The notes below the pieces were generated by a model. The model was not told the DNA's origin. It ran no database searches and saw only the letters and a program-made list of their open reading frames with translations. Of a DNA stretch of 24,000 nt, positions 1-22,100 are shown one piece after another; position 1 is the stretch's first letter; every line of letters starts with the position of its first letter. The translations under genes were made by a program, and so were the position numbers. The DNA lies in assembly GCA_022616215.1 (NCBI GenBank), contig JAKEFE010000016.1:5175-29174 (forward strand). The letters are read 5' to 3'. This DNA is from Candidatus Parcubacteria bacterium. GTDB lineage: Bacteria > Patescibacteriota > Minisyncoccia > Phycocordibacterales > Phycocordibacteraceae.

Positions 1-455
1 TCTCCGGCACACAACCCAAGCACAGAAAGTACGCGAAGCGCCGCAAGACATTCGGCGGCATCGGCATCTTTTTCCGAAAGAGTCGGGAGCGCGTCAAGAA
101 ACTCGGAAAAAACATGAAAGAGTTTTGAATCGTGAATTTCACCGTGCACCAACCGGAGAAACAAGCTCGCTATGCGCCCCGCGCGAAGACGCGCGGGTTC
201 ACTTAGTTTTGCAAGCTTATTTTCTATGAGCACCGCTCCCGAAAGCCGCCATCCTTCTTTTCCGCGCACCAGAAGAGCGTGTGTGTGAGCGAGCGTTTGC
301 GCTGCGCAGGAAAGTTTTGCGCCGGATTTGCGAAGCCCCTGTGCACGAGCGCGCACAAGACCAAAGTCGGGCGTCAACAGATGGAGGAGTGCGCTTGCTT
401 CGGAAAGCGGCGAACGAGCGAGCACAATGGCCTCTGTGTCGTACCTAGCGCGCAT
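1..455 (-). CDS. recO: DNA repair protein RecO, N-terminal ~151 codons (3' end runs off the left edge)
   Basis: This frame is not in the supplied ORF track. Hand translation of the minus strand from ATG 455-453 gives MRARYDTEAIVLARSPLSEASALLHLLTPDFGLVRARAQGLRKSGAKLS...LLVRGKEGWRLSGAVL... with no stop down to position 3. That matches the RecO N-terminal OB-fold pattern (aivL...lt...G.v.a.A.G.rk..skl). The start overlaps the ileS stop by 11 nt. Confidence 0.7.
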   Translation of the reverse strand, partial: MRARYDTEAIVLARSPLSEASALLHLLTPDFGLVRARAQGLRKSGAKLSCAAQTLAHTHALLVRGKEGWRLSGAVLIENKLAKLSEPARLRAGRIASLFLRLVHGEIHDSKLFHVFSEFLDALPTLSEKDADAAECLAALRVLSVLGLCAG

Positions 456-3400
456 TGGTTTTCACCTCAAACTTTTCTACGCCCGTAGAAAGCACCACTT
501 CGTAGGGTCCTTTCCCCCATACCACGTCCACCTGGTCTTTGGGTGAAAGCCCCATAGCTTTTCGTGCATCCGCCACCGCGCGCAGTTTCTCGCGCTCATC
601 CCCTTCTTTCACCAGTTCTGGCGTAAGTACCGTATCAAGATGCAGTTCTGTTCCCGAGAGTTTTTTATCAAACACAACCTGCTTCACATTTATTTCCTCC
701 CGCAAAAGTTCAACGAGTTCTGGAGAAAACGGCACGCTGTCAGCTGCAAGCTGCAAGCTCTGTAGTGGTTGGCGCACTTTGATATTCGCCTTTTGCCGAA
801 GCATCAGTGCTTCGGAGGCAAGCGTGCGCACGCGCGCCATCTCTTCAACGAGTTTTTCATCAACAGCTCCTGCTTCCGGCCAGTCTGCCAAATGCACGCT
901 GTCCGGGTCGGCGAGGCTCTTTACGCTGCGGTACATTTCATCTGCAACAAACGGCATGACTGGTGCAGTGAGTTTTGAAAAAGTCAGCAGAACGTATCGC
1001 ATGGTGGCAAGCGCATGCGTCCGATCCTCTCCCATTTCTTTTACGCGTTCGCGCGAACGACGCACATACCACGTTGAAAAATCCTCAACAAATTCTCGCA
1101 TCGGACGCGAAGCATGAACCGTGTCGTATATCTCAAGCGAGTCAGTAATCGTTTTTGCAACTTCGGCAAGCCGAGAAAGTATCCAGCGGTCAAGGACATG
1201 CGGGGAATCCGCTGATGCGGCAACGGTGTCGTCTTGGTAGAGCGTATAAAACTGGAATGTATTGCGAAGAATATTAATGACTCGACCATGTACTTCTTTC
1301 ACGTCTTGGTCTTTGAAATTCAGATCTTCTGATTGCATGACGACGCTTGACATGAGGTAGTAGCGAAGAGCATCGGCTCCGTACTGATTAACAAGAATCA
1401 TCGGATCGGTGAAATTTCCGACGCTTTTGCTCATCTTTTGACCATCACTTGCAAGAATGGTGCCAGTTGAAACGACATTACTAAATGCGCGATGGTTAAA
1501 AAGAAGTACGGCAACGGCATGCATGTAGTAATACCATGTGCGCGTTTGTGCAATGTATTCTGATATGAAATCTCCCGGTGTTCGTTTTTCAAACTCCTCT
1601 TTGTTACGAAACGGATAGTGGTATTCGGCAAACGGCATACAACTAGACTCTACCCAGCAGTCTACGACTTCGGGAGTGCGGGTAAGTAGTTCACCTCGTT
1701 CATTCATCAACTTTACGTCGTCTATATAGGGCAAATGAACATCTAATTCAAAGTTCTCGTTATGAGGAAGCGGCACGAAAGGAAGTTCCCGTACTTCTCC
1801 GTTTTGCGGGTCTCTCGCTTTCTGCCAGTCGTTTAGAAACTCCTGCATGGTGAGTCCGTACGCGGTAGCGGTGAGCATGCGGATGACGGCACTGTGCGTC
1901 ACAAACAACACGGTTTCGTTTTTGTGTTCTTTTTCAAATTCATACAGAAATTCGCTTGCGCGTTTGCGAACGTCGTACCAGCTCTCCCCGCCCTCCGGAC
2001 GCTTGTGCATCATTTCGTCCGTACTGGTGAACGATTCGTGGTACTCCCTGATGGAGCGACCATTCCACACCCCTCCGTTGAGTTCAATAAGCCGTGGCTC
2101 TGTGGAAATGCGTTCATTTGGCAGACCAAGTGCTTCCGCTACCGCCTCCGCTGTTTGCTTCGTGCGGGCAAGCGGCGAACACACGATACGGGTAATGCTT
2201 TTGTCTTTGAGAAGAGCTCCAGCACGAAGCGCTGCTGCTCTGCCAAATTCAGTGAGATTGCCCGGAACAGAGTCGGTACTGTTCAACACATTCTCTACGT
2301 TATTCTCCGACTCGCCATGTCGCATTACAAAATAGTGATTCCCCGATTTCACCGTCAGTTTCTTAAGTTCCTCAAGTGAACCAATAACGGTTATGTCACC
2401 TTTTGCATCTTTCCAAATGGGAAGTGGGCTTGCCCAGAAACGGTTCCTAGAAATGGTCCAATCCGGCGCATTTTCTACGATGTTTTTGAACCGTCCGTGT
2501 TTTAAGTGTTCTGGAAACCAGTAAATCTTTTCGTTCTCATCAAGCATCTTCTGCTTGATTGATTGGGTGTCCACGAACCACGATGGCACGGCGTTATAAA
2601 TGAGCGGTGTGCCACATCGGTAACAGTGCGGATATGAGTGTGTGTACGGTTGAACATCAAACACGAGTGAACGGCTTCTTAGGTCTTCAATTATTTTTCC
2701 ATTCGCTTTTTTGATATGCTCGCCGCGCAGAAATTCCGGCACATCATCGTTATATGTGCCGTTTGAATTAAGGAGTGGAATCATCGGAAGATTTTGTGCT
2801 TTCCCAAGCTCGTAATCGTCTTCTCCGTACATGACTGCGGTGTGCACTATCCCCGTGCCGTCTTCCGTCGTCACAAAACCCGCAGAAACCACTTCCCATT
2901 TTTTCCCTGTGTGTGCTTTCACTTTTTCTATTTCGTACAGCGGTTCGTACTCTACGCCGACCAACTTCTCTCCCTTCACTACAGTTATGTCGTCGTATTC
3001 GGGATTGAAAGCGAAGTCCTTTGTGAGACCGGATGTTGGCTCTACGACCTCAACATTCCCGTGCATGCGTACACATGCCTCTTTCGCGACTACGAGAGAA
3101 ATCTCTGGCTCGGTTTTCTTCTTAAAGACTACGTAGTCGATGTCCTTTCCTACCGCAAGCGCAACGTTTCCGGGCAGAGTCCATGGCGTTGTCGTCCACG
3201 CGAGGAAAAAAGTGTTTTCAGGGAGTCCGTGTTTTTTCGGCTCTTTCACTTTGAACTTCACCGTTACCGCATCTTCCGTGATGTCCCTGTAGGTGTTGTC
3301 CATCGCAATCTCTGCTTTAGCAAGCGGCGTTTCGTCACGCGTGCAATACATGAGCACCCGTCTCCCTCCATAGAGCTTTCCTCTCTTATGGAATTCTTTC

Positions 3401-3885
3401 AATGCCCACCACACGCTCTCCATGAACGTGGCATCCATGGTCTTGTATGAGTTATCAAAATCTACGAAACGTCCGATACGCTCAATGTATCGTTTCCACT
3501 CATGAATGAACTCGAGCACTGTCTCACGTGCCACCATATTAAATTTGCCAATGCCATACGCAAGAATGTCTTTCTTTGATTTCAGTCCGAGTTTCTTTTC
3601 AACGATGCTCTCAATGGGAAGTCCGTGGGTGTCCCATCCCCATCTCCGGCGCACGTGATACCCGCGCATGGTTTTGTATCGCCCAAAAAGGTCTTTGGAG
3701 GTGCTTCCTAGAATGTGGCCGTGGTGTGGCAGTCCTGTGGCAAACGGAGGGCCATCGTAGAAAACGAATTCGCCTTTGTGAGACGGTTTTTCAAGCGAGC
3801 GTTCAAAAACCTTGTTCTCTTTCCACCACAAGAGTATTTCTTCTTCGCGTTTCGCTACGTCTGCTTTGCCTTTATCTTCGGCCAT
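445..3885 (-). CDS. ileS: Isoleucyl-tRNA synthetase (type-2-like) carrying an internal histidine-phosphatase domain insertion
   Basis: 1146-aa ORF. Class I signatures are present: PPFATGLPHHGHILG (HIGH) and DGQKMSKSVGN (KMSKS). IleRS blocks are present: WGWDTHGLPIE, TTTPWTLPGN, PDWTISRNRFWASPLPIW, VVDCWVESSCMPFA. Confidence 0.95.
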   Translation of the reverse strand: MAEDKGKADVAKREEEILLWWKENKVFERSLEKPSHKGEFVFYDGPPFATGLPHHGHILGSTSKDLFGRYKTMRGYHVRRRWGWDTHGLPIESIVEKKLGLKSKKDILAYGIGKFNMVARETVLEFIHEWKRYIERIGRFVDFDNSYKTMDATFMESVWWALKEFHKRGKLYGGRRVLMYCTRDETPLAKAEIAMDNTYRDITEDAVTVKFKVKEPKKHGLPENTFFLAWTTTPWTLPGNVALAVGKDIDYVVFKKKTEPEISLVVAKEACVRMHGNVEVVEPTSGLTKDFAFNPEYDDITVVKGEKLVGVEYEPLYEIEKVKAHTGKKWEVVSAGFVTTEDGTGIVHTAVMYGEDDYELGKAQNLPMIPLLNSNGTYNDDVPEFLRGEHIKKANGKIIEDLRSRSLVFDVQPYTHSYPHCYRCGTPLIYNAVPSWFVDTQSIKQKMLDENEKIYWFPEHLKHGRFKNIVENAPDWTISRNRFWASPLPIWKDAKGDITVIGSLEELKKLTVKSGNHYFVMRHGESENNVENVLNSTDSVPGNLTEFGRAAALRAGALLKDKSITRIVCSPLARTKQTAEAVAEALGLPNERISTEPRLIELNGGVWNGRSIREYHESFTSTDEMMHKRPEGGESWYDVRKRASEFLYEFEKEHKNETVLFVTHSAVIRMLTATAYGLTMQEFLNDWQKARDPQNGEVRELPFVPLPHNENFELDVHLPYIDDVKLMNERGELLTRTPEVVDCWVESSCMPFAEYHYPFRNKEEFEKRTPGDFISEYIAQTRTWYYYMHAVAVLLFNHRAFSNVVSTGTILASDGQKMSKSVGNFTDPMILVNQYGADALRYYLMSSVVMQSEDLNFKDQDVKEVHGRVINILRNTFQFYTLYQDDTVAASADSPHVLDRWILSRLAEVAKTITDSLEIYDTVHASRPMREFVEDFSTWYVRRSRERVKEMGEDRTHALATMRYVLLTFSKLTAPVMPFVADEMYRSVKSLADPDSVHLADWPEAGAVDEKLVEEMARVRTLASEALMLRQKANIKVRQPLQSLQLAADSVPFSPELVELLREEINVKQVVFDKKLSGTELHLDTVLTPELVKEGDEREKLRAVADARKAMGLSPKDQVDVVWGKGPYEVVLSTGVEKFEVKTNAR
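1749..2350 (-). other. In-frame ~195-200 aa histidine phosphatase superfamily (PGAM/CobC-like, branch 1) domain inside ileS; boundaries approximate
   Basis: Motifs read directly from the ileS frame: HYFVMRHGESENN (RHG catalytic His, nt ~2311-2340), CSPLARTKQTAE, EPRLIELNGGVWNG, VTHSAVIRML (second His). They lie between the IleRS blocks VIGSLEEL and DVHLPYIDD. Confidence 0.75.
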
Positions 3886-3899
3886 GAATCTCTATCCTA

Positions 3900-5540
3900 T
3901 TACATCTTCTCTGGTACGGGAATGCCAAGGAGCCAGAGGCCGTTTTTCATGGTGTTCATGAATGCTTTGGCGACTCGTTGTTTGTACGCCTCTTCCGGAC
4001 TACCAAGCACCTGCTCACTTGCATAGAAAGAGTTCCAGGCAGAAGCAAGCTCTGTAAGATATTGCGTCACATAGTGAGGGGCGCGCTCGCGCTCAGCACG
4101 GAGCACTACTTCAGGGAATCGAATAAGGATGCGTTCAATAACATACGGCTCATCTGGAACTTCCGTACCCGCACCCTCCGACTCGTAGCTCACAATCTTC
4201 TTTGCACGCACATATGCATACTGAAGATACGGCCCAGAGTCCCCATCAAGCGAGAGAGACTTTTCAGGATCAAATATGATGTCGCCCCCAGGTGCTGCTC
4301 GCAAAATCATGTACTTGATAGCGGCCAAGGCCACCTGTTCGGCAATGAGCGGATCGTCATTCTTCTTACTTGCCTCTTCTATTACGTCAGTAATGAGCGA
4401 CTCGCCGGTAATAACGTTACCGGTGCGAGACGACATTTTCCCACTCGTAAGCCTAAGAAAGCCGTTCGGAATATGGAGCGTCTTTGCGCCAAGCGCAGGA
4501 GCAACATCTTCAAGTGCAGCCTTCACCACCTTAAAGTGGCCAATCTGCTCAACCGATGTACAGATGAGTGAGAGGTCAGAGGGCCAACGCTCTTCCTTAA
4601 GAAATGCGAGCCCGAGCTCTTTTGCTTCATAGGTAGGTGTACCCCGTGAGGTGATGAATACCAAGGTGTGCAGCCCCTTCTTCTCCCCCTCATATATCAC
4701 TGCGCCGTCACTCTCCGTGAAGACTTGAGGAGTGTGCTTTTTCACAAGTTCCGTCCCAGACTCCGCCACTTCGCTCTCAAAGAAGTAGTAATCAAACTTG
4801 GTACCAAGCTTTTTGTAGATGACTTCAAACGCTTCAAGTGATATTGCGCGTCCCTTGCGCCACAGCTCCATGAGCTCACGGTCTTCGCCTTTATAAATAG
4901 CAAGGTTGAGCGCGTCTATTTCTGCTTTTGCTTTTTCGCTCTCCTCATATGCTCGTGAGCCGTGAGCATATGCCTTGCCTAGTTCGGCAGCTGTGGCGGG
5001 TTCTGTACTACCAGCTTCGATAAGTCCCCATATCGCTCGCGCAACGTGGGGACCTACGTCTCCTTGGTAGTTTGCTCTGGAAACGGTTGCCCCAGAAAAT
5101 TCAATGAGCCGAGAAACAGACTCACCGATGATGTTGCTCATCAAGTGTCCGATGTGCATCTCTTTGAAAGGGTTTGGTTGTGTATACTCAACCATTATTC
5201 GCTTACCCGTATTCGCATCTCCCCCACCCCACATATCCTCTTCAGAGGCAGTTGCGACACCTTCTCTCACCGCGTCTTTTGAAAGGGTGATGTTGATGAA
5301 ACCGGGACCGGCGACTTCCACGCGAGAGGCGTCTTTGCCGAGCGCTTCTTTGATGAGAGGCGCGAGCTCGCTGGCGAGCTCGCGGGGATTTTTGGCAAGG
5401 TGTTTGGCAGCGGCAAGGGCGGCGTTTACCGCAAAGTCTCCGTGGGCAAGGTCAGCTGGCCACTCAACGACAAAATCAACGTCGCCTGCCCCCGCTTTTA
5501 AAAGCGCGTCTTTGGTCGCTTGCCTAATCTTTTCCTCCAT
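3900..5540 (-). CDS. argS: Arginyl-tRNA synthetase
   Basis: 546-aa ORF. It has the VEVAGPGFINITL block in the N-terminal domain, the HIGH-type motif EMHIGHLMSN, and a DALR-like C-terminal region ending ...GIPVPEKM (terminal Met is typical of ArgRS). It lies 14 nt upstream of ileS. Confidence 0.93.
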   Translation of the reverse strand: MEEKIRQATKDALLKAGAGDVDFVVEWPADLAHGDFAVNAALAAAKHLAKNPRELASELAPLIKEALGKDASRVEVAGPGFINITLSKDAVREGVATASEEDMWGGGDANTGKRIMVEYTQPNPFKEMHIGHLMSNIIGESVSRLIEFSGATVSRANYQGDVGPHVARAIWGLIEAGSTEPATAAELGKAYAHGSRAYEESEKAKAEIDALNLAIYKGEDRELMELWRKGRAISLEAFEVIYKKLGTKFDYYFFESEVAESGTELVKKHTPQVFTESDGAVIYEGEKKGLHTLVFITSRGTPTYEAKELGLAFLKEERWPSDLSLICTSVEQIGHFKVVKAALEDVAPALGAKTLHIPNGFLRLTSGKMSSRTGNVITGESLITDVIEEASKKNDDPLIAEQVALAAIKYMILRAAPGGDIIFDPEKSLSLDGDSGPYLQYAYVRAKKIVSYESEGAGTEVPDEPYVIERILIRFPEVVLRAERERAPHYVTQYLTELASAWNSFYASEQVLGSPEEAYKQRVAKAFMNTMKNGLWLLGIPVPEKM

Positions 5541-5566: not shown

Positions 5567-6820
5567 TTATTCAAACGATTCAGGGACAGGGCGAGCGGTA
5601 GCAAGTTCCTTAATACGAGCTTTAGCATTCCCTACTGCTGCCTCACGGTTTTTAAGGATATCTACCATGAGTTCCGCCACCTCTCTGCATTCTTTCTCCT
5701 TAAAACCGCGTGTGGTGATGGCAGGGGTGCCCAAACGAATGCCTGAAGGGTCCATCGGACGACGAGGATCGTCAGCAATAACGTTTTTGTTGAGCGTGAT
5801 GTTCGCTTCGTCCAACAGCTTTTCTGCTTCTCCGCCGGACATTCCAAACGACGATACGTCCGCGAGAACAAGGTGGTTGTCCGTGCCGCCGGTGATAAGG
5901 CGCATATTATGTTGAGAAAAGACCTCTGCCATCGCTTTCGCGTTTTTGATTATCTGCCTTGTATATTCTTTAAATGACGGCCGCAGAGCCTCGCCAAAAC
6001 ACACCGCTTTGGCCGCAATCATGTTCATCAAAGGGCCTCCCTGAAATCCGGGGAATACTGATTTGTTTATCTTCTTTGCGAGCTCTTCGTTTTCACGCGT
6101 GAGAATGATGCCTCCGCGAGGACCTCTCAGCGTTTTGTGCGTTGTGGAAAGCATGACGTCAAACCCGTACTGAAAAGGGTTTTTGAGAGCGCCTCCGGCA
6201 ATAAGTCCTGCAATGTGCGCCACGTCTGCAATGACAACAGCATCAACTTCCCTGCCGATAGAAACGAACTTTTCGTAATCAAGCTCCCGCGGATACGCAG
6301 AGAAACCAGCCATGATGACTTTCGGTTTTTCTTTCTTCGCTATCTCACGCATTTCCTCGTAATCAATAGCACCTGTCCCAGCATCTTTCATCTTGTAACG
6401 AACGAAATTGAATATCTTGGTGATGTAGGTTACCGGATGTCCGTGGGTGAGGTGTCCTCCGTGTGAAAGATCCATGCCCATGATGGTGTCGTCCGGCTCC
6501 ATGAGCGCAAAATAGGTAGCAATATTTGCTGGTGCTCCGGCGTGAGGTTGTACATTTGCGAAACTCGCGCCAAATAATTTCTTCGCGCGTTCGATAGCGA
6601 GCGTTTCTACTTGGTCGGTAAATTCTTGCCCGCCGTAGTAGCGCCTGCCCGGATACCCTTCCGAATATTTATTGGTCAAAACGCTTCCCATCGCTTCGCG
6701 AACTGCGTGCGAAACGTAGTTTTCAGATGGAATAAGCTCAAGCCCTTCTGCTTGGCGCTTTTCCTCTCCTTCTAATGTTCCGTATACTTCCGAGTCCTCC
6801 TTCTTGATATGTTCGTACAT
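5567..6820 (-). CDS. glyA: Serine hydroxymethyltransferase
   Basis: 417-aa ORF with SENYVSHAVREAMGSVLTNKYSEGYPGRRYYGG and the PLP-lysine motif STTHKTLRGPRGG. Confidence 0.95.
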   Translation of the reverse strand: MYEHIKKEDSEVYGTLEGEEKRQAEGLELIPSENYVSHAVREAMGSVLTNKYSEGYPGRRYYGGQEFTDQVETLAIERAKKLFGASFANVQPHAGAPANIATYFALMEPDDTIMGMDLSHGGHLTHGHPVTYITKIFNFVRYKMKDAGTGAIDYEEMREIAKKEKPKVIMAGFSAYPRELDYEKFVSIGREVDAVVIADVAHIAGLIAGGALKNPFQYGFDVMLSTTHKTLRGPRGGIILTRENEELAKKINKSVFPGFQGGPLMNMIAAKAVCFGEALRPSFKEYTRQIIKNAKAMAEVFSQHNMRLITGGTDNHLVLADVSSFGMSGGEAEKLLDEANITLNKNVIADDPRRPMDPSGIRLGTPAITTRGFKEKECREVAELMVDILKNREAAVGNAKARIKELATARPVPESFE

Positions 6821-6878
6821 GAATAGGAGTGTACCGCGCCCTCCCGAAAGGACATGGGGACAGCAAAAATGCGCACGC

Positions 6879-6884
6879 TATACT
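6879..6884 (+). promoter_or_regulatory. -10-like hexamer TATACT, 9 nt upstream of the dcd ATG
   Basis: The sequence reads cgcTATACTgtgccgaacATG, with no purine-rich Shine-Dalgarno between the hexamer and the start. The same architecture recurs at other operon-leading genes (see findings). Confidence 0.35.
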
Positions 6885-6893
6885 GTGCCGAAC

Positions 6894-7598
6894 ATGGCGT
6901 TATCCGACCGGCGAATCCTCGAGGAGCTCAAAAAAGGCGACATCGTCATTCACCCGTTTGATAAAAGTCATTTGGCAACTTCAAGTTACGACGTAACGCT
7001 TGGTGAATGGTTTTATCGCGAACAGCCGCCTCAATACAACCACAGTTTGTATAACATCTGGAGTCGCGAACATTCCGAACACGTCTGGGGCGCAGATAAG
7101 TGCGAGCGAGCGGTATTCGCAAAAGAAGCGTTTAAAAAATACAATTTCAACTGGGATGGTATTCGGCCAGATGACAAAGTCATTGTGCTGCGCCCCGGAG
7201 AAACCATCCTCGCTCACACGGAAGAATTCATCGGCGGCAAAGACCACATCACGACCATGATGAAAGCGCGGAGTTCCATGGGACGTAACTTCATTGAAGT
7301 ATGTAAGTGCGCTGGCTGGGGGGACGTAGGGTATGTAAACCGATGGACGATGGAAATAACGAATAACTCAAAGAATTACCTCATCCCGCTCGTTGTCGGG
7401 CGTCGCATCGCACAACTCATCTTTTTTGAGACCGGACCAATACTGGCGAGCGACTACGCCGCGCACGGTAAATACGCCTCGTCAACGAATGTGAAGAAGC
7501 TTGCAAAGATGTGGAAGCCGGAGGACATGCTCCCCAGACTCTGGCGTGACCGCGACCGCGAAAAACGCCAACCATGGCACCGAAAAAAGAGAGCATGA
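6894..7598 (+). CDS. dcd: dCTP deaminase family protein (Dcd/dUTPase-fold)
   Basis: The start was trimmed to the ATG at 6894 (MALSDRRILEELKKGDIVIHPFD...SSYDVTLG). Dcd-type motifs are LRPGETILAHTEE, ARSSMGR, GWGDVGY and TMEITN (catalytic Glu). The TGA stop overlaps the next start as ATGA. Confidence 0.85.
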   Translation: MALSDRRILEELKKGDIVIHPFDKSHLATSSYDVTLGEWFYREQPPQYNHSLYNIWSREHSEHVWGADKCERAVFAKEAFKKYNFNWDGIRPDDKVIVLRPGETILAHTEEFIGGKDHITTMMKARSSMGRNFIEVCKCAGWGDVGYVNRWTMEITNNSKNYLIPLVVGRRIAQLIFFETGPILASDYAAHGKYASSTNVKKLAKMWKPEDMLPRLWRDRDREKRQPWHRKKRA

Positions 7599-8677
7599 TG
7601 CGACCTCATTTCATCGCAGCGACCACGATGAATGAGCTGATTTTCAAGGCACTGGATACCATTTCCCATGACGGCATACGCACACCTTCGCGAAACGGCG
7701 AGACCAGTACGCTCTACAACACCTTCTTCACGCTGACGAACCCGCGCTCGCGGCATTTGAACCTCAAGGGCCGCAAGAACAACGTCTTCGCAATGATTGC
7801 CGAGACGTTCTGGGTACTCGCCGGACATGACGCACTTGATCCCGTGATGACCTTCTTCCTGCCACGCGCTAAGGATTTTTCCGACGACGGCATCACCTGG
7901 CGCGGCGCGTACGGACCGCGTCTCTATCTCTACAACCAGCTTGAAGACGCGGTGCGCGTCTTTCACGAGGAAGGGCTTGAAAGCCGCCGGTCGGTCATCG
8001 CCATTTACCTGCCGGAACGTGATACCAAGGAGAGCTTGAAAGAGATATACCACTTGGAAAACACGAAAGACCGACCATGCAACAACCTGCTCCACTTCTT
8101 CGTAACGCCCGACCAAAAGCTCCACATGAACGTATACCAGCGCTCTGGCGACGTGGTGTGGGGTATGGGAAGCATCAACGTGTTTGAGTGGACCGTCTTG
8201 CATGAGTTTGTCACAGGCGAGGTGCGCCGCCGCTCAAGCAAGGACGTGACGCTCGGCACCTACAATCATTTCGTTACCAATCTTCACCTCTACGACTTCA
8301 CCGGAGAGCAGGGGCGCGCAGTGCTTGAGAACAAAGATGCCCACGACTTCACTTCTGAAAATACAAAACCGCTCATTTTCCCGGAGGGCGTCGACGGAAT
8401 GAGGCGCTTCGCCACCGATTTGCTTGCCACATACGCGCACGCCATCGAAAGCAAGGAGCGCAACCACGAGACACTCATGCGCGAGGTGCGTGGCGTCTTT
8501 GATTTCCACAAGGTGTCTTGCAACGGCAATCTTCTTCCGGCGTATGCAGAACTTGCGGCCGCGTACATCACTACCAAGAACGGAAACCCCGACGTGTCCG
8601 TGTCGCTTGAGGGACACGACGAGGAGTTTGTGTCGAGCGTCCGGGACTCACACTTCAGGAAGTTCAAGCTCGTATGA
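7595..8677 (+). CDS. Thymidylate synthase (ThyA) superfamily pyrimidine C5-(hydroxy)methylase, divergent, with a ~100 aa C-terminal extension
   Basis: ThyA-like blocks are present: IAETFWVLAG, GAYGPRLY, SRRSVIAIY, DRPCNN (catalytic Cys), YQRSGDVVWGMGSIN (R-S-x-D plus the Asn that reads uracil), TNLHLY. I chose the start at 7595 (ATGA overlap with dcd); an alternative ATG lies at 7574. Confidence 0.75.
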   Translation: MMRPHFIAATTMNELIFKALDTISHDGIRTPSRNGETSTLYNTFFTLTNPRSRHLNLKGRKNNVFAMIAETFWVLAGHDALDPVMTFFLPRAKDFSDDGITWRGAYGPRLYLYNQLEDAVRVFHEEGLESRRSVIAIYLPERDTKESLKEIYHLENTKDRPCNNLLHFFVTPDQKLHMNVYQRSGDVVWGMGSINVFEWTVLHEFVTGEVRRRSSKDVTLGTYNHFVTNLHLYDFTGEQGRAVLENKDAHDFTSENTKPLIFPEGVDGMRRFATDLLATYAHAIESKERNHETLMREVRGVFDFHKVSCNGNLLPAYAELAAAYITTKNGNPDVSVSLEGHDEEFVSSVRDSHFRKFKLV

Positions 8678-14709: not shown

Positions 14710-15450
14710 CTAGTCCGCGGCAAACCGTTCTGCGGCTTCCAAAAAGTCTGCGGGCGGGGGTGCCACAAACGTCTTTCGCTCGCCCGACGGAAGGGTGATG
14801 GAGAGCGTTGAGGCATGGAGCGCCGGACGTACAAACCCCAACAGACAGGGTTTTCCTGCCGCATATATAGGGTCACAAATGATGGGGTGTCCAACATATC
14901 TCATGTGTACGCGCAGTTGATGCGTGCGACCGGTTTTAGGCGACAGTACCATATATGACACCGGCTCATTCGTCTTAGTGTCGCTCCCGCGTATTTCAAC
15001 GTTCCAGGTCGTTATCGCCGCCCGATGTTTTTTATCCTCCCCTTCGCGCATCACACCCCAGCGCGGCGGCATGGACCGAAGGCGCACGATTTCTTTTTCA
15101 ATAGTTCCCGCATCTTTTTTCGGATGTCCGTACACATATGCGGCGTATGTTTTTTCCGTAGTCCGACTTCCGAATTGTTCTTTGAGAAATGCGTGCGCCT
15201 CCTGCGTCTTTGCAAGTATGAGTGCGCCGGAGGTTGTTTTATCCAGCCGGTGCACGATGCCCGGGCGCGCGATGGTTTCTCCCTGCGGGGTAACGAGCGG
15301 CTCGCCCACCTCTGCCGTCTGCGGATACTTGTTCACCACCCATTCGGTTACCGAATACTCCTTATTGCGGCCGTCCGGATGCACGATAAGCCCCGCCGGT
15401 TTGTCTATGACCAGTACGTTGTCGTCTTCATACAGAACGGTTGGCTTCAT
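14710..15450 (-). CDS. RluA-family pseudouridine synthase (no S4 domain)
   Basis: 246-aa ORF with [14 protein letters not shown], the catalytic Asp motif [18 protein letters not shown], and [10 protein letters not shown]. Confidence 0.9.
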
Positions 15451-16581: not shown

Positions 16582-17715
16582 TTACGTACCCCGTTTGCTT
16601 CTTTGTTTTGATTCGGCCGTCTGTTTGACCTGACGTGGTACCGCGCTTCTGCCGGCAAGTACTCTCCGTGCTTTTCGCCTGAGTCTGCGCGCCCTGCGCT
16701 GTTCCCCGTGCCGTATTGCTCGGTGCTCCCTCCCTTGTTCAAAGGCCGCGTAACCGAGCGTAGCATCTTGGGCGGCGGCTAAATAATCGAGGAGTGGCGC
16801 TCTTGCATCATTGACCGCATTCGTGAGCTTCTCAAGATTTATGCCCTCCGTTTGATGTCGAACGATTCTTGGATGCACCCCGCTTGATGGCACCCGCTCA
16901 AACGACACATACGGTGCAGTATTCAAAAGGTCGCGATACTCGCGTTCAAGAACTGATTTCACAAACCGCAATAAATCAGACGCTTTAATAGCTTTTTCTT
17001 TATATGCTTCAAGCGCGACAAGAGTTTTTTTGAGCTGTTCCTTCGGAGGAATATCTTTCCTTGTGATCTCTCTCATGGAAGATATGAGGGAGGCGTGAGC
17101 TTCGCTATATATGTTCCTCACCTCTTCGGCAATGTCCTTGAGTGTGAGGCGCACTTCTTTAGTGGATCCATCTTCATCTGTCTCGGTAAAAGGATGTGCT
17201 TCTTTGAGACCTTTATTACCTTGTTCAAGAATTTTAAGCGCATGAATAAATTCACCAAGTGCATGGTCCACTCCGCCGTTATCTGAACGTGCAACCTCCT
17301 CAACAAGCGCGTCCACATTTACATCAAGATTACGTTTAGCCTCCAGAAAAATAGCGGCGATCAGAAGCCGTTCTCTATCTTTGGTTTTGAGATGTTCGCG
17401 TACACCTCTTCTCCCAAGAATCTCCTCCTCCATGTTTGAACCTATAAAATCTTCTATTGCTTCTGGTCGCATACCAAGAAGCTGTCCTGTGTCGTTGCGT
17501 CCTCTATAGCCACCATACAGTCTGTGCTGGGACTCAAGTGCGAGATCTGTCGCCTGTTCTCCGTGTCGGTGTTTCTTCTCTTCTCGTTTTGCTTTACCTT
17601 CTTCAGCAGCGGCTCTCGCATACAAAACCGCGGCGTGGATTTTGTCAAAGATATTTGGTCTTTGTTTTGTTTCTTTCTTGTTCTTTGTTGTCTCCTGACG
17701 CAATCCTTCATGCAT
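16582..17715 (-). CDS. Hypothetical protein (orphan A): highly charged, helical, Arg-rich C-terminal tail
   Basis: The start was trimmed to the ATG at 17715 (MHEGLRQETTKNKK...), because the longer ORF begins inside the 40-bp palindrome. No family was recognised, and there is no signal peptide or TM helix. The C-terminus is ...RHGEQRRARRLRRKARR.... Confidence 0.55.
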   Translation of the reverse strand: MHEGLRQETTKNKKETKQRPNIFDKIHAAVLYARAAAEEGKAKREEKKHRHGEQATDLALESQHRLYGGYRGRNDTGQLLGMRPEAIEDFIGSNMEEEILGRRGVREHLKTKDRERLLIAAIFLEAKRNLDVNVDALVEEVARSDNGGVDHALGEFIHALKILEQGNKGLKEAHPFTETDEDGSTKEVRLTLKDIAEEVRNIYSEAHASLISSMREITRKDIPPKEQLKKTLVALEAYKEKAIKASDLLRFVKSVLEREYRDLLNTAPYVSFERVPSSGVHPRIVRHQTEGINLEKLTNAVNDARAPLLDYLAAAQDATLGYAAFEQGREHRAIRHGEQRRARRLRRKARRVLAGRSAVPRQVKQTAESKQRSKRGT

Positions 17716-17718
17716 ATC

Positions 17719-17731
17719 TTCAGTATATATG
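17719..17731 (-). promoter_or_regulatory. Shared 5' motif CATATATACTGAA (contains a TATACT -10-like hexamer) ending 3 nt from the orphan A ATG (TATACT ends 6 nt from it)
   Basis: The minus strand reads caccaccgttCATATATACTGAAgatATGcatgaag. A near-identical string precedes orphan B at 19468..19480. Confidence 0.4.
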
Positions 17732-17740
17732 AACGGTGGT

Positions 17741-17780
17741 GCTGTAATTATACACTTCGCGCGAAGTGTATAATTACAGC
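17741..17780. repeat. Perfect 40-bp palindrome (20 + 20 nt, no spacer)
   Basis: GCTGTAATTATACACTTCGC|GCGAAGTGTATAATTACAGC, verified base by base. Each arm contains TGTATAAT, an extended -10 consensus, facing outward on either strand. Confidence 0.95.
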
Positions 17781-17904
17781 ACTGCAAAGCAGTGCGAGGA
17801 GACGAAGAAAGCCGGAGTGCGAGGCGGGGTCGCGGAAATGTTCAGCAGAGCATTATCCGTGACCAAGTCCCTCAGCGCGCACTGCAAAACAATCAGAGAG
17901 CGCC

Positions 17905-19464
17905 CTACTTATAAAGCGGCCCGCCCTCTGCAGGCTCATTTTCTGCGCTGCTGATGCGGGTGAAATTTCCATCAGTCTGATGCGGCCCTAGATATTCTGG
18001 AAAAAGAGGGTGCGGCTCTCCCTGTTCGCGAAGCTCGGACGTCGCAGGGCTTTGCAGGGACTCATAGACGTCAAGCTCATCTGGATTTAGCGCGCCACCG
18101 TCTGTTTTGCTTATCGCCGGTCGCTCCAATGCGGCAGCCTGCACGGAAGCATATCCTGCAGCAAGGCCGGAAAGTGCAAGGGCGGCGAGCGCAAACCTAA
18201 TCTTGTCGGCCGCCGAAGGTTTCTTGGATATCCGATACTGCTCAAAGAGTGCGTCGGCCGCGTCCAAGCCATCTTGCACACGATTATTGATATCCAAGAG
18301 CTCCCCTTCCGTGAGCTTTTTGCCATATTCGGAACGCGCCCTATCAATGAGTGCGTCTTCCAACTGCTGCTCGGTCACCCTGCCGTAGGGAAACCGCCCA
18401 AGCACAACGCTCAATTTCCTGTCTGCCTCCCGGGTGCTCATTCTCCCTCGCTCTCTGATATGCTTAAATGAATCTTTAAGCTGTTCTCGCTCTGCGGGAG
18501 TAAGTATGCGTTCTTTACTTTCGGTGCGCTCCAGCTCAAGTCGCTTTGCTTCTTGCCGCCGCGCGCGCTCTGTGAACATAATCTTGTACTGTTCCGCCGC
18601 CCAGTCCAAAATCTCCTTCGGATCTTCTCTTCGCGCGCGGATGTAGGTAAAAATAGTGTGAATAGCTCGGTCAACGAGCTCCTTGCTCGGCTCTTCTTCC
18701 GCCCTGATGAATTCTTTGCCGACGGCCATCAGCTCTTTGAAGGTTTCTTCGCGAGAAAGCACGGGTAGTTCCTTAATGTAGTCAAGCGTGTCTTCGTCAA
18801 ATAACGTGAGAGGCAATTCTATCGACGGCGATAGTAACCCTGACTCCTGCGCAGAAGACTGCTCAACATCCGACGCTTTCGTTTCGTCTTCTTCCACAGT
18901 CGTCCTTCTGGTCTCCAATTCTATAATCTTTGGTTCGCGACGCGCCGGGCGCACTCCGAACACAAAATCTACCGCTGAATCAAGAAACGTCTTGTGTCCT
19001 TGTTTCTTTGGTAGGCGTGCGGAAGGTGTGATGTCCGGCAGCGCGACTCCCGGACCTTGCGCCATGAGCTCCTGCAAGTGTCGCTCAACTTCTTCTATGG
19101 TCGCTCGCACTCGGCGCATCTTTTCTCTTTGCACTTTGGGATGTGGCCCAATGACCACCTCCTTGACGACCGTGAGCGGTGTGGCTGGTGGTTCAAATTC
19201 TCCGAGCGTTTCCTTCGGCACGCGCCCTTGAGCAAGCCGTGCCGACACCTCTCGGAGTTTTTTTAGACGCTCTTCTTTTTCGGCAAATGGTTGCGTACGG
19301 TCAAATGCTTCCAGCGCACCTTTCTTTTTCATCTGTTGCCGTTTTCGTCTTTTCTCTTTCTGTACGCTCTTCTCAAAATGTTCTATTTGCGCCTTGAGAC
19401 GTCGGCTTTCTCCGGTGGTTCCTTTTCGTACTTCTTTGTATTTCTGAGGATGCGCTTCACGCAT
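17905..19464 (-). CDS. Hypothetical protein (orphan B): basic N-terminus, long charged coiled-coil-like middle, one C-terminal TM helix
   Basis: The start was trimmed to the ATG at 19464 (MREAHPQKYKEV...), because the longer ORF is antisense-free overlap with tRNA-Leu(CAG). Basic patch KEKRRKRQQMKKKG. Predicted TM segment IRFALAALALSGLAAGYASVQAAAL, followed by a ~90-aa tail. No family recognised. Confidence 0.6.
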   Translation of the reverse strand: MREAHPQKYKEVRKGTTGESRRLKAQIEHFEKSVQKEKRRKRQQMKKKGALEAFDRTQPFAEKEERLKKLREVSARLAQGRVPKETLGEFEPPATPLTVVKEVVIGPHPKVQREKMRRVRATIEEVERHLQELMAQGPGVALPDITPSARLPKKQGHKTFLDSAVDFVFGVRPARREPKIIELETRRTTVEEDETKASDVEQSSAQESGLLSPSIELPLTLFDEDTLDYIKELPVLSREETFKELMAVGKEFIRAEEEPSKELVDRAIHTIFTYIRARREDPKEILDWAAEQYKIMFTERARRQEAKRLELERTESKERILTPAEREQLKDSFKHIRERGRMSTREADRKLSVVLGRFPYGRVTEQQLEDALIDRARSEYGKKLTEGELLDINNRVQDGLDAADALFEQYRISKKPSAADKIRFALAALALSGLAAGYASVQAAALERPAISKTDGGALNPDELDVYESLQSPATSELREQGEPHPLFPEYLGPHQTDGNFTRISSAENEPAEGGPLYK

Positions 19465-19467
19465 GCT

Positions 19468-19480
19468 TTCAGTATATATG
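19468..19480 (-). promoter_or_regulatory. Second copy of the CATATATACTGAA motif, ending 3 nt from the orphan B ATG (TATACT ends 6 nt from it) and starting 6 nt after tRNA-Leu(CAG)
   Basis: The minus strand reads cacaccgtCATATATACTGAAagcATGcgtgaag. Confidence 0.4.
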
Positions 19481-19486
19481 ACGGTG

Positions 19487-19569
19487 TGCCCAAGAGAGGA
19501 TTTGAACCTCCAACCCGTTACAGGATACGCTTCTGAGGCGTACGCGTATACCAATTCCGCCACTTGGGC
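19487..19569 (-). tRNA. tRNA-Leu (anticodon CAG), class II, CCA not encoded
   Basis: Acceptor GCCCAAG/CTTGGGC + A. Anticodon arm TACGC-CTCAGAA-GCGTA. Long variable arm. T arm GGAGG-TTCAAAT-CCTCT. The 3' flank is CAC. Confidence 0.85.
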
Positions 19570-19657: not shown

Positions 19658-19972
19658 CTAACGGTCGCGCGACGGGTCAATGAACTCGTACTCGTTTCTA
19701 TAGCGACTCTCCTCCCCCGCCCGCTCGCTAAAAAGTGCTTTTGCTTCTTCAATGGCGCGCGTGTTCACGGTCTCTTGCGCGGAACCTGTCGTGGAGAAAT
19801 CGCTTGTGAGCACATTGAGGAAAAACCACGCATTCCACGCAAGACTTGCAAGAACGAGCATGCCCGCGATTGAAAGCAGCACCATCCAATCGCGGGACGG
19901 GCGTATTGTTTCCCCGTAGGAAAGTCCGGATATCAGTTTTGTAAACGAACGGAAATCGGTTGGAGTCTTCAT
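19658..19972 (-). CDS. Small single-pass membrane protein, fourth gene of the pilMNO-like operon
   Basis: 104-aa ORF with a TM helix (WMVLLSIAGMLVLASLAWNAWFFL). The start overlaps the upstream stop as ATGA. No family recognised. Confidence 0.5.
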   Translation of the reverse strand: MKTPTDFRSFTKLISGLSYGETIRPSRDWMVLLSIAGMLVLASLAWNAWFFLNVLTSDFSTTGSAQETVNTRAIEEAKALFSERAGEESRYRNEYEFIDPSRDR

Positions 19973-20478
19973 GGTGTTTCTGGTGCGCTGACGAGCAGTG
20001 TGAGAGCCGCCGTCCAGCTCCCATCTCCGGTCGTATCAAGCGTAAGACTGTCGGTTGCACTCCCGTACCGACCGTACTCAAGAGCGCCGAGCGTCTTCAT
20101 GACGGCGCTAAACGTGCCACTAAAAGAAAGTGCAAGAGACAGTTGTTCTTTGGTATTGGTTTCGGTGACGGACAGCACAGAAACGGCAGCCCCGAACGCA
20201 TCTCCCGTGCTTTCGACGTCTTCAAGAAAAGCAACAATGTTGTTGGTGGGAACAAAGTGACTTGCAAGAGAGGTTTCATCAGCTTCAAGCGCCGCAAAAA
20301 CATCCTGGCCTCGTATAAGCTGTGTTTGTTCGTCATGTTTTTGTGCGATGTCGACTTCAAGCGCCGTGACGCGTGACGCGGCGCGGTTGATTTCAAAAAA
20401 CCACGCAAGGTATGCCCCGACACATATGAGTGCGAGCATAAGAGACAAAATGCAGTGAATAAAAGCTGGAGATTTCAT
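19969..20478 (-). CDS. PilO-like type IV pilus assembly protein (assigned by position and topology)
   Basis: 169 aa with an N-terminal TM helix, then a coiled-coil (RVTALEVDIAQKHDEQTQL), then a beta-rich C-terminal domain. ATGA overlaps on both sides. It follows pilM and pilN. Confidence 0.5.
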   Translation of the reverse strand: MKSPAFIHCILSLMLALICVGAYLAWFFEINRAASRVTALEVDIAQKHDEQTQLIRGQDVFAALEADETSLASHFVPTNNIVAFLEDVESTGDAFGAAVSVLSVTETNTKEQLSLALSFSGTFSAVMKTLGALEYGRYGSATDSLTLDTTGDGSWTAALTLLVSAPETP

Positions 20479-21029
20479 GGCGTAAGAGTGCCAGTAAGCG
20501 TTATGACAAATGAAATATCTGTCTCCTGTGCATACACTGAGAGCGGGAGATCGGCTTTGGTGACAAATGGGAGCGCAGAGACGCGTCCATGATATTGCCG
20601 AAGCGTTTCCCGTGTCGCCGCCGTTCCCGATATGCTCATTTCTCCCTCGCCGCTTACCGGAGGTGTAACGGTAAAGCCGCGAATGCTGATGCCGTCTGAT
20701 GGTACTGATAGCACTCCTTGTATGACGGCGGACGTGGACGGACGTTTTGCAAGAGATAGCAACGCGTCTGCTTTGACTGTAAGCGCCTGTCTTCGCGTCG
20801 ATAGTGTCTGCTCGGGAGATTCGGAGAGCGCTGAAGTCAAACCATCAAGGTGTGCGTGTCGCGTTTTGACTTCCTCGGACAAATATACATACGAAGGAGC
20901 AAGAAGTGCGCTATGTATCACGACGAGAAGTGCAACCGTGAGCGCTCCAAGCGTGCACAAGCGAAAGAAATACTCGCGGCGAAATGCGCGTATTCGGTCA
21001 ATTGGCAAAAGATTGGTGAGCTCCGACAT
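20475..21029 (-). CDS. pilN: PilN-like type IV pilus assembly protein
   Basis: 184 aa. The short cytoplasmic N-terminus LLPIDRIRAFRREYFFR fits the PilN pattern (NLLP...R), followed by a TM helix and a periplasmic-type domain. It lies 3 nt after pilM. Confidence 0.6.
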   Translation of the reverse strand: MSELTNLLPIDRIRAFRREYFFRLCTLGALTVALLVVIHSALLAPSYVYLSEEVKTRHAHLDGLTSALSESPEQTLSTRRQALTVKADALLSLAKRPSTSAVIQGVLSVPSDGISIRGFTVTPPVSGEGEMSISGTAATRETLRQYHGRVSALPFVTKADLPLSVYAQETDISFVITLTGTLTP

Positions 21030-21032
21030 ACG

Positions 21033-22100
21033 TTATGGGTACTCGCGAAGAGCAAGCCCGATTGCGGTGCCGTAGGCTAGAGATTCGGTATAGGCAAGCG
21101 GAGGAAGCCATGCGCTTTTCGGAGCAAAGTTGGCAAACACATCGCCGAGCGCAACCGGCACTTTAAGCGACGCTTCAAGGTATTCTGGAAGTCCAAGAAC
21201 GGTTGCATTCCCACCGACAAGAACGACGCGTGTTACCGGGTCTCCTCCCGCGTGCGACTGCCAATATTCAAGACGTTTTACAATTTCGTCACGAATAACC
21301 GATACGGTTCCGAGCATCGCCGCTATGTATTCTTCGTTTCCGACACCCGGCGCTATGCCTTTTTCTGCCTTTACTTTCTTCGCATCTTCCTCGGAAACGC
21401 CGAAATATTTCATGACGGCAAGCGTGAGCGCATGGCCACCGATATCAAGGGTGGTAACAAAACGCGGAATGCGTTTGGTTACCACAAGAAGCTTGGTCGT
21501 AGTCTTGCCAATGTCAATGATGAGGACCGTTTCTTTGTCTCCACGGGGAAGAACGGCGCGCGGCAGAGAAAACGTCTCGCTTTCTATCGCGCGCACGCGA
21601 AGCCGCGACTCATCAAGGACGGAGAGCGTATCTTCCACCACGCGCCGTGCGTATCCGGTGCCGACGACACGAACGCCCTCATTGCTTTCGCCAACCGATG
21701 CAACGTCAAAGATAACTTCCGAAGAAGGGAGCGGCACGTACTCATCAAGATGTTGTTCAACGGCAATCCGCTCTTCCTGTCCGTTTCCTTTTGGCACAAC
21801 CGCTTCAAAAAGATACCCGCGTGCTTCGGGAAGCGTGACGTTTGCCGTGTGAATGTGATTTCGTTCTGCGAGCGATTTTAATCCGACGACCACCGCATCG
21901 TGGTCTTGTATCTCTCCCCCAACAACCGCTCCGGCAGGCAGGGGAAACTCGTCGTACGCGGAAAGCTCAAGTCCGTGTGTGCGCTCCACGATAGTGGCAA
22001 TTTTGATGCCGCTCGTTGAAATATCAATCCCGGAAGTCGGAAGCGACAGGTAGTGCGGCGGTGCAAATTCAACACGAAGGAAACGCGAGAAAGCGTTCAT
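21033..22100 (-). CDS. pilM: Type IV pilus assembly protein PilM (actin-like ATPase fold)
   Basis: 355 aa. Motifs: GIDISTSGIKIA, LIIDIGKTTTKLLVV, LDIGGHALTLAV, VVLVGGNATVLGLPEYL. Confidence 0.8.
   Translation of the reverse strand: MNAFSRFLRVEFAPPHYLSLPTSGIDISTSGIKIATIVERTHGLELSAYDEFPLPAGAVVGGEIQDHDAVVVGLKSLAERNHIHTANVTLPEARGYLFEAVVPKGNGQEERIAVEQHLDEYVPLPSSEVIFDVASVGESNEGVRVVGTGYARRVVEDTLSVLDESRLRVRAIESETFSLPRAVLPRGDKETVLIIDIGKTTTKLLVVTKRIPRFVTTLDIGGHALTLAVMKYFGVSEEDAKKVKAEKGIAPGVGNEEYIAAMLGTVSVIRDEIVKRLEYWQSHAGGDPVTRVVLVGGNATVLGLPEYLEASLKVPVALGDVFANFAPKSAWLPPLAYTESLAYGTAIGLALREYP

Follow-up and report, generated by a model that had tools for sequence, protein, structure and literature searches.

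Few known enzymes are as conserved as the aminoacyl-tRNA synthetases, and synthetases with appended domains have been described. To our knowledge, extra catalytic domains nested in the Rossmann-fold insertions of bacterial synthetases are rare, and none of the phosphatase kind has been studied. In isoleucyl-tRNA synthetase (IleRS), the CP3 subdomain is a beta-beta-alpha-alpha unit in Candida and a zinc-binding motif in Thermus (PMC7191050). In the yeast enzyme (ScIleRS), CP3 comprises residues 459-526 and is joined to CP2 by the linker 453-ARDWNVSRNRYWG-465, which lines the tRNA CCA/reveromycin pocket (PMC7955072). Here we describe the IleRS of a Candidatus Parcubacteria bacterium, encoded on a 24,000-nt stretch of contig JAKEFE010000016.1 (referred to as the window), in which a predicted histidine phosphatase is nested within CP3.

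A histidine phosphatase domain within CP3

The window IleRS is encoded by a single open reading frame (ORF) of 1146 aa with no break, as the original prediction had claimed. The protein is a 100% match to NCBI MCI0597623.1 (P0077 among our database relatives), named 'class I tRNA ligase family protein [Candidatus Parcubacteria bacterium]'. Pfam found tRNA-synt_1 (4e-118) in two stretches, with His_Phos_1 between them and Anticodon_1 after them. The His_Phos_1 match (PF00300) covered aa 519-684, where about aa 515-710 had been expected, with E=2.1e-39 and 135.7 bits against a gathering threshold of 21.7, and it spanned profile positions 2-167 of 194. The phosphatase motifs quoted in the original prediction were all present, and so were APDWTISRNRFWA (aa 473-485) and VVDCWVESS (aa 740-748) in the flanks. 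A complete branch-1 histidine phosphatase thus lies in-frame between two blocks of the catalytic core.

We used an insert-less relative, P0013, to define the limits of the insert. P0013 is an IleRS fragment on one 868-nt contig in ENA, in which 3 residues replace 192 and the flanks are 80-83% identical to insert-bearing homologues. In BLASTP, aa 447-509 (79% identity) and aa 702-903 (62%) of the window IleRS aligned to it, with 3 residues between. Because the alignment ends at aa 509 and resumes at aa 702, the insert proper was taken as aa 510-701 (nt 1783-2358). The span first proposed, nt 1749-2350, equals aa 513-712. P0013 nests among insert-bearing homologues, so the insert can be removed precisely without destroying the IleRS frame; this suggests a precise secondary loss, judged from one short contig. 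With a recent horizontal transfer in mind, GC content was compared: that of the insert (0.53-0.56) exceeds that of its immediate flanks (0.44-0.47) but is inside the range of the gene and of the window, and so gives no pointer to such a transfer.

Both flanks of the insert were recognised as native CP3. Since APDWTISRNRFWA corresponds to the yeast-type CP2-CP3 linker, the insert lies within CP3. In the AlphaFold model the N-terminal part of CP3 consists of two short strands and a helix (E490-492, E498-500, H504-510). The conserved P..LP.N...ELD.H.PYID segment that follows the insert is the C-terminal part, and its columns F703, P707, N709, E713, D715, H717, P719 and D722 had a conservation of at least 0.96. 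The original prediction had stated that an ordinary type-2 IleRS holds a short or zinc-binding segment here and that the Cys ligands are absent from the window protein. Both statements agree with our results: the segment is the CP3 subdomain (PMC7191050), the distant insert-free type-2 IleRSs P0026, P0027 and P0037 have a CxxC...CxxC knuckle at the insert position, and the window CP3 has no such knuckle. The predicted phosphatase occupies the distal tip of CP3, the place where other type-2 IleRSs carry the zinc knuckle.

Conservation was measured in the window protein and 66 genomic homologues (67 sequences; also the set used for the CP3 columns above) and in a separate set of 125 protein sequences. 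R522, H523, G524, S570, R574, R642 and H664 were invariant in the 67 sequences, and the core Arg/His/Arg/His set was likewise invariant among the 125. N529, E601 and E634 were each retained in 66 of 67; E601 was found in 119 of 125 proteins, the remainder in both sets having Asp. All canonical catalytic residues are thus present, as had been claimed, and they are invariant or nearly so. Mean identity to the window protein across the 66 genomic homologues was 36% for the insert and 48% for the core, and the insert length was narrowly kept (about 200-217 aa across homologues). The invariance of the catalytic residues, in inserts with just about 36% identity to that of the window protein, shows that they are under strong purifying selection. 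The phosphatase is complete and apparently active.

These data bear on whether phosphatase chemistry matters at all. The insert might be a structural substitute for the CP3 zinc knuckle, or a module for solubility or interaction. It occupies the exact knuckle position of other type-2 IleRSs, the window protein lacks those Cys residues, and Asn replaces the second His in 9 of 67 copies borne by valyl-tRNA synthetase (ValRS; see below). However, about 190 IleRS sequences with inserts only some 36-45% identical all keep the four core catalytic residues unchanged, and two relatives, P0012 and P0269, have knuckle and insert together, keeping the CxxC halves alongside the phosphatase. We therefore regard a non-catalytic role as highly improbable.

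AlphaFold modelled the full-length IleRS with a predicted local distance difference test score (pLDDT) of 89.5 and a predicted template modelling score (pTM) of 0.82, the insert region reaching a pLDDT of 92-98. Short ordered connectors join the domain to the CP3 helix H504-510 on one side and to the conserved C-terminal CP3 segment on the other. The phosphatase domain modelled alone gave pLDDT 94.4 and pTM 0.91. The models thus depict an autonomously folding domain held by short ordered connectors.

Distribution in Paceibacteria/Parcubacteria

The nested architecture is widespread. The best 120 protein clusters (90% identity) were all full length (1098-1185 aa), all had PF00300 and came from contigs of up to 766 kb. 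At least 160 GTDB species-representative genomes of Paceibacteria/Parcubacteria encode a relative of the insert; the lineage names among them include Adler-, Kaiser-, Nomura-, Taylor- and Zambryskibacteria, Paceibacterota and Minisyncoccia. In 66 of the 80 loci that we fetched, an uninterrupted ORF covered the full length of the window protein. Of the other loci, most were cut at contig ends, and in one (L030) the gene was split between two reading frames. The architecture is the norm in a large Paceibacteria/Parcubacteria clade, where it is inherited and ancient.

Consequently, there is virtually no chance that the fusion is an artefact or a selfish element, be it a chimeric assembly, a frameshift-fused neighbour or an intein-like insertion absent from the mature protein. 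Misassembly, which the original prediction had asked to be checked, is excluded because hundreds of independent assemblies share the architecture. Split or frameshifted genes were considered when a short junction query gave only fragments of 274-496 aa, some of them on long contigs; this explanation was dropped after the 66 uninterrupted ORFs and the 120 full-length clusters had been found. An intein or mobile element was also considered, as a conserved 'HN' dipeptide in the flank recalls an intein C-terminus. Both were rejected. Pfam gave no match to Hint, intein or homing-endonuclease families, and the junction does not suit splicing: HN is followed by E, K, A or D in place of C, S or T, and it lies in a native CP3 segment that also aligns in the insert-less P0013.

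Proteins with this architecture are already plentiful in NCBI nr, JGI and ENA, where their names are generic; NCBI calls the full-length proteins only 'class I tRNA ligase family protein'. In our literature search, in which coverage of journals was incomplete, no account of a synthetase with a nested histidine phosphatase was found. The possibility had been raised that such fusions are both common and characterised; they proved to be common, and no characterisation was found in that search. The parts, a type-2 IleRS and a PhoE-like phosphatase, are known, and the architecture is uncharacterised but common in databases. What is new here, and was not part of the original prediction, is the recurrence of the domain family at five or more sites, in one to four copies, in IleRS and ValRS of Peribacteria, Peregrinibacteria and Gracilibacteria. 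Database fragments of these IleRS genes and of related domains (P0005, P0035, P0043 and others) were named 'broad specificity phosphatase PhoE' or 'probable phosphoglycerate mutase' by annotation pipelines. Such names on fragments can distort metabolic reconstructions of the Candidate Phyla Radiation (CPR).

Recurrence at other sites in IleRS and ValRS

The insert alone was searched against 1.84 billion cluster representatives, and the best 150 hits (50%-identity representatives) were classified. Ninety-eight were found inside IleRS, 4 of them with two copies, and 2 inside ValRS. The other 50 had no synthetase flanks and were fragments, free-standing PhoE-like proteins or tandem two-domain proteins. 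No host class besides IleRS and ValRS occurred among the best 150.

Pfam and motif mapping revealed at least six insertion sites (A-F, Table 1). In P0255, P0245 and P0311 (MBT4020988.1 from Candidatus Peribacteria), both copies are in CP3 and flank the DLHxxxD helix. In P0256, with two copies at further sites, CP3 is an ordinary zinc knuckle; members of this cluster are on contigs of up to 1.06 Mb. When a full-length ValRS was used as the query, 73 of the 120 best clusters had the domain, under the names Peregrinibacteria or Gracilibacteria and on contigs of up to 1.37 Mb. Fifty-nine of these had a single copy, 12 had two, one had three and one had four. ValRS copies retain the Arg/His/Arg residues, with the change of the second His to Asn noted above. 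ValRS proteins P0278, P0197 and P0342-P0459 carry 1-4 His_Phos_1 domains, and their close relatives include insert-free ValRS.

Copies within one protein were 26-30% identical. In a neighbour-joining tree and in BLAST comparisons, the ValRS copies formed their own clade, and the IleRS, ValRS and free-standing groups were roughly equidistant (30-38% identity). Given this divergence within single proteins, and the roughly equal distance of ValRS copies from IleRS copies and from free-standing proteins, several independent captures of the phosphatase domain are likely. When the residues conserved across IleRS- and ValRS-borne copies were compared with free-standing relatives, none was confined to the synthetase-borne copies; the residues in common were those of the generic superfamily core.

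Other nested domains were also seen. In P0269 (JGI), the editing region of IleRS contains an IS200-like Y1 transposase domain, and the protein also has His_Phos_1 in CP3 and a GNAT domain. Precomputed Pfam lists (P0359, P0440, P0409) gave DUF559 (PF04480) in two ValRSs and the HU-type PF00216 in one. CPR class Ia synthetases seem unusually tolerant of nested domains.

Proposed role of the phosphatase

We put at roughly even odds the reading that the insert is a self-contained active phosphatase with a small phosphoester substrate, dispensable for tRNA charging. It would form a third self-contained active site in IleRS, besides the synthetic and editing functions, and the bifunctional synthetase-phosphatase of the original prediction would be a reasonable reading. 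A phosphomonoester would be hydrolysed through a phospho-His523 intermediate, Arg522, Arg574 and His664 holding the phosphate and Glu601 protonating the leaving group. The synthetase would charge and edit tRNA-Ile independently of the phosphatase, and aminoacylation would not need the domain. The substrate would most likely be a small soluble phosphoester (metabolite or nucleotide) and not the tRNA body. CP3 would act as a permissive surface loop, with the phosphatase co-expressed with, and retained by, an essential gene.

A small-molecule substrate is favoured because the nearest relatives (PspA, PhoE, GpgP and CobC) are small-molecule phosphatases. In other lineages site and copy number vary widely (1-4 copies at five or more sites, one of these in the anticodon-binding region), which speaks against a phosphatase coupled to the synthetic site in a fixed geometry. 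Taken with the insert-less P0013 and with common residues that are those of the generic core only, these observations suggest that the phosphatase is independent of aminoacylation.

Several points weigh against this interpretation. Loss of the domain is documented by a single 868-nt contig. The multidomain hosts among the best 150 relatives were only IleRS (98) or ValRS (2), and such specific hosts, together with repeated capture at different sites, hint at a functional link with class Ia synthetases, which would be unexpected under pure hitch-hiking. In the Paceibacteria type, the modelled connectors are short, well ordered and conserved (N516; P707 and N709 in the flank), suggesting a fixed mount and not a loose tether. 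The term 'small phosphoester' derives from resemblance only, because the insert scores below every subfamily cutoff (see the last section). Finally, CP3 starts at the linker lining the tRNA CCA pocket (PMC7955072).

It is possible, though in our view doubtful, that CPR class Ia synthetases have in this phosphatase a true third catalytic function, recruited independently at least 5 times into IleRS and ValRS because of a target that these enzymes encounter. Candidates may be a (pyro)phosphorylated tRNA 3' end, a phosphorylated synthetase, or a by-product or inhibitor of adenylation.

Dephosphorylation of the tRNA 3' end would make the tRNA chargeable, either as repair or as immunity against tRNA-modifying toxins. 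The location of CP3 next to the linker of the CCA pocket would suit such a role, as would the repeated capture in class Ia synthetases and the restriction of the nearest multidomain relatives, among the best 150, to IleRS and ValRS. We nevertheless consider this unlikely. The domain is acidic on average (mean pI 5.8-6.5, net charge -3 to -5), its nearest relatives are small-molecule enzymes, and no pocket residues specific to synthetase-borne copies were found. Some copies are distant from CP3 in sequence, including the one in the anticodon-binding region, and near-universal retention in the clade resembles housekeeping more than an arms race. We also know of no polynucleotide-end phosphatase in the histidine phosphatase superfamily, which counts against this role. 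A precedent for the damage itself exists in toxSAS toxins, which pyrophosphorylate tRNA CCA ends, some of them picking particular tRNAs (bioRxiv 10.1101/2021.04.30.441581, PMC11559606).

A protein phosphatase acting in cis was also considered, which would strip an inhibitory phosphate placed by a Ser/Thr (HipA-like) kinase and so yield a self-repairing IleRS or ValRS. The superfamily does include protein phosphatases (SixA, PGAM5 and Sts-1), which speaks for this possibility, and a tethered enzyme working in cis would tolerate differing insertion sites and copy numbers. HipA-family toxin kinases that phosphorylate and inactivate glutamyl- and tryptophanyl-tRNA synthetases provide a precedent (PMC6581861, PMC8262856). 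However, no kinase targeting IleRS or ValRS is known, none of the 20 neighbouring window ORFs scanned had a kinase domain match, and the nearest relatives lie outside the protein-phosphatase subfamilies. We rate this explanation as improbable.

The domain might instead destroy a by-product or inhibitor of the synthetase, namely pyrophosphate (PPi), AMP, Ap4A-type dinucleotides or a phosphorylated aminoacyl-adenylate mimic, so pulling the reaction forward or detoxifying locally. By Rosetta-stone logic the fusion would imply a common ligand; the hosts are IleRS and ValRS, and several copies would give more local capacity. Phosphatase domains of PPIP5K/Vip1 are histidine phosphatases that cleave phosphoanhydrides, which also speaks for such a hydrolase. 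Yet PPi and AMP are released by all synthetases and only two hosts were observed, the synthetase-borne copies have no distinguishing residue signature, and no branch-1 pyrophosphatase precedent was found among the structure matches. We rate this explanation, too, as improbable. The original prediction had proposed tRNA ends, an alarmone or an adenylate analogue as substrates; given the small-molecule relatives, the acidic domain and the lack of any synthetase-specific pocket residue, we found nothing in favour of these candidates.

Whatever the substrate, a whole class of ultra-small, host-dependent bacteria retains an apparently active phosphatase in IleRS, and related lineages have 1-4 copies in IleRS or ValRS. 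If this is an independent metabolic phosphatase, it represents a striking gene economy through domain nesting. Should the activity prove to be tied to tRNA charging, this would amount to a new accessory role for synthetases and a possible handle on CPR translation protection. A true third function would mean a previously unknown layer of tRNA-charging maintenance within the synthetase. While the bare architecture is visible in any domain database, multi-site and multi-copy nesting in two paralogous synthetases would surprise specialists.

The host synthetase and other genes in the window

The window IleRS scored 799.7 bits against TIGR00392, the NCBIfam ileS equivalog (cutoff 621.4), and is therefore a member. 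It was below the 1900 cutoff of both NCBIfam exception models for mupirocin-resistance IleRS, MupB (666) and MupA (631). Foldseek gave type-2/eukaryotic IleRSs as the best matches (8c8v, 8z1p, 1ile and 6ldk; 28-33% identity, E 1e-75 to 1e-64), while type-1 IleRSs (8c9e, 1qu2, 8wnj) matched with 20-21% identity and E of about 1e-52 to 1e-46. The window IleRS is closer to type-2 than to type-1 IleRS. Columns of the WTTTPWT and GTGIVH motifs in the CP1 editing domain were invariant or nearly so (alignments A2 and A3). Judged by its motifs, the gene is the organism's housekeeping-type, type-2 IleRS, with synthetic and editing motifs and the anticodon-binding domain intact.

The zinc site of the CP core looks half lost: window positions 3325-3348 (aa 180-187) read YCTRDETP against the family consensus YCPHCETP (C184 to D), and the partner pair C421/C424 (HSYPHCYRCG) is retained.

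The conserved gene order is ArgRS (arginyl-tRNA synthetase, window 3900-5540, minus strand), IleRS with the phosphatase, and RecO (window 3-455, minus strand), the RecO start overlapping the IleRS stop by approximately 11 nt. Among the loci L001-L080, ArgRS was upstream of IleRS in 50 of 80 and RecO downstream in 61 of 80. Because both are housekeeping genes, the neighbourhood gives no clue to the function of the phosphatase.

Table 1. Features of the IleRS gene in the window, and insertion sites of the phosphatase domain in IleRS and ValRS.
Feature	Residues (aa)	Window position (nt)	Strand	Basis or remarks
IleRS gene with nested phosphatase, type-2/eukaryote-like	1146 aa	445..3885	-	ORF list; ileS equivalog; Foldseek
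HIGH-type class I motif PHHGH	53-57	3715..3729	-	Motif position; P53, H54 and G56 nearly invariant (alignment A3)
CP1 editing-domain core, WTTTPWT (230-236) to GTGIVH (343-348)	230-348	2842..3198	-	Motif positions
CP2-CP3 linker APDWTISRNRFWA	473-485	2431..2469	-	Counterpart of ScIleRS linker 453-ARDWNVSRNRYWG-465
Native CP3, N-terminal part, ...PIWKDAKGDITVIGSLEELKK	486-509	2359..2430	-	AlphaFold; 79% identity to P0013
Insert proper, predicted branch-1 histidine phosphatase, 192 aa	510-701	1783..2358	-	BLASTP against insert-less P0013; Pfam; AlphaFold; Foldseek
RHGESENN: Arg522, nucleophile His523 (nt 2317-2319), Gly524, Asn529	522-529	2299..2322	-	Motif position
CSPLARTK: phosphate-binding Arg574	569-576	2158..2181	-	Motif position
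IELNGGVWNG: Glu601, putative general acid	600-609	2059..2088	-	Motif position
VTHSAV: second catalytic His664 (nt 1894-1896)	662-667	1885..1902	-	Motif position
Native CP3, C-terminal part, PFVPLPHNENFELDVHLPYIDD...RTPE	702-739	1669..1782	-	P0013 alignment; highly conserved, without CxxC zinc ligands
KMSKS class I motif	817-821	1423..1437	-	K817 and K820 invariant (alignment A2)
Anticodon_1, anticodon-binding domain	899-1042	760..1191	-	Pfam, E=8.6e-29
Site A: IleRS CP3 before DLHRPYID				Window type; also P0269, P0255, P0245, P0311
Site B: IleRS CP3 after DLHxxxD				Second copy in P0255, P0245, P0311
Sites C and D: P0256				Two copies: after DCWFESGSMPYA and where the anticodon-binding region begins
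Site E: ValRS, homologous CP3 position				
Site F: ValRS, after ISPQWF				

Elsewhere in the window, a dCTP deaminase-like gene (6804-7598, plus strand) is followed by a gene for a 367-aa protein (7574-8677, plus strand) whose only match, to thymidylate synthase, is weak and partial (E=8e-10, aa 106-254); the latter may be a divergent ThyA or a dCMP-hydroxymethylase-like enzyme. The ribosomal protein L19 ORF (14070-14897, minus strand) is listed with 275 aa, of which only aa 88-192 form the L19 domain, and it overlaps a pseudouridine synthase ORF (14710-15450). Either its start is over-extended or this is an L19 with extensions, which are frequent in CPR ribosomal proteins. Upstream of a PilM-like gene (21033-22100) are ORFs of 401, 552, 169 and 184 aa (16582-17787, 17905-19563, 19969-21029, all on the minus strand) for which Pfam gave no match. 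The real start of the 552-aa ORF is probably further in, because the listed GTG start overlaps tRNA-Leu(cag) at 19486-19569.

Comparison with known phosphatases, synthetases and fusions

By sequence and structure, the nearest solved proteins to the phosphatase domain were the phosphoserine phosphatase PspA of Hydrogenobacter (4ij5), PhoE of Bacillus (1h2e/1ebb), the mycobacterial glucosyl-3-phosphoglycerate phosphatase GpgP (4pz9/6s2q) and the alpha-ribazole phosphatase CobC (6nru/6e4b); TIGAR and fructose-2,6-bisphosphatases were also among the nearest matches. With the free-standing PhoE, PspA, GpgP and CobC (1h2e, 4ij5, 4pz9, 6nru) the window domain shares the fold (TM about 0.7), the RHG...N, S..R, E, H catalytic set and a size of about 190-210 aa, with sequence E values of 1e-16 to 1e-10. 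It differs in being nested in another enzyme and would thus be monomeric by context. At the position aligned to the His of PspA IDHG, it has a Gly (LNGG). The insert scored below the equivalog cutoffs for PspA (NF045917, 76.9 against 350 bits) and CobC (TIGR03162, 89.3 against 162.9), and below those of the cofactor-dependent phosphoglycerate mutase models dPGM_arch (67.5 against 225), GpmB (55.2 against 261) and PRK01295 (34.3 against 316). It is outside every phosphatase subfamily with a curated NCBIfam cutoff. In PADLOC-DB it matched no defence family at E<=0.01.

Type-2 IleRSs, the eukaryote- or archaeal-like and mupirocin-resistant kind, from Priestia megaterium (IleRS2, 8c8v), Thermus thermophilus (1ile) and yeast/Candida (8z1p, 7d5c, 6ldk) have the same domain order as the window protein: a Rossmann fold with HIGH and KMSKS, CP core, CP1 editing domain, CP2, CP3, anticodon-binding and C-terminal domains. 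Their CP3 is about 60-70 residues long, whereas the window CP3 adds a 192-aa enzyme domain between its helices. No comparable insert was seen in any solved IleRS among the Foldseek targets (at most 1061 aa).

Two other kinds of fusion are similar in part. RNase H/acid phosphatases of the Rv2228c type (NF005567) likewise combine His_Phos_1 with an enzyme that acts in nucleic-acid metabolism; their phosphatase half was matched by the window insert with 90 bits, far under the 326 cutoff, and a Rhodococcus member (P0059) was among the matches. They are end-to-end fusions with another partner enzyme, in contrast to the nested insertion in the window. IleRS with GNAT (ileS_w_GNAT, NF040702) is also an IleRS with an additional enzyme domain and differs in which domain it is. 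The window IleRS scored 315.9 against its cutoff of 1999 and is a non-member, and the relative P0269 combines His_Phos_1 in CP3 with a GNAT domain.

The ValRSs of Peregrinibacteria and Gracilibacteria with nested His_Phos_1 have the same domain family, most copies being at the homologous CP3 position (after DWxISRQ...PVWY), and keep the catalytic Arg/His/Arg as in the window insert. They differ from the window IleRS in their paralogous host and CPR class, in having 1-4 copies and an extra site after ISPQWF, and in forming a clade of their own that is not nested among the IleRS inserts.

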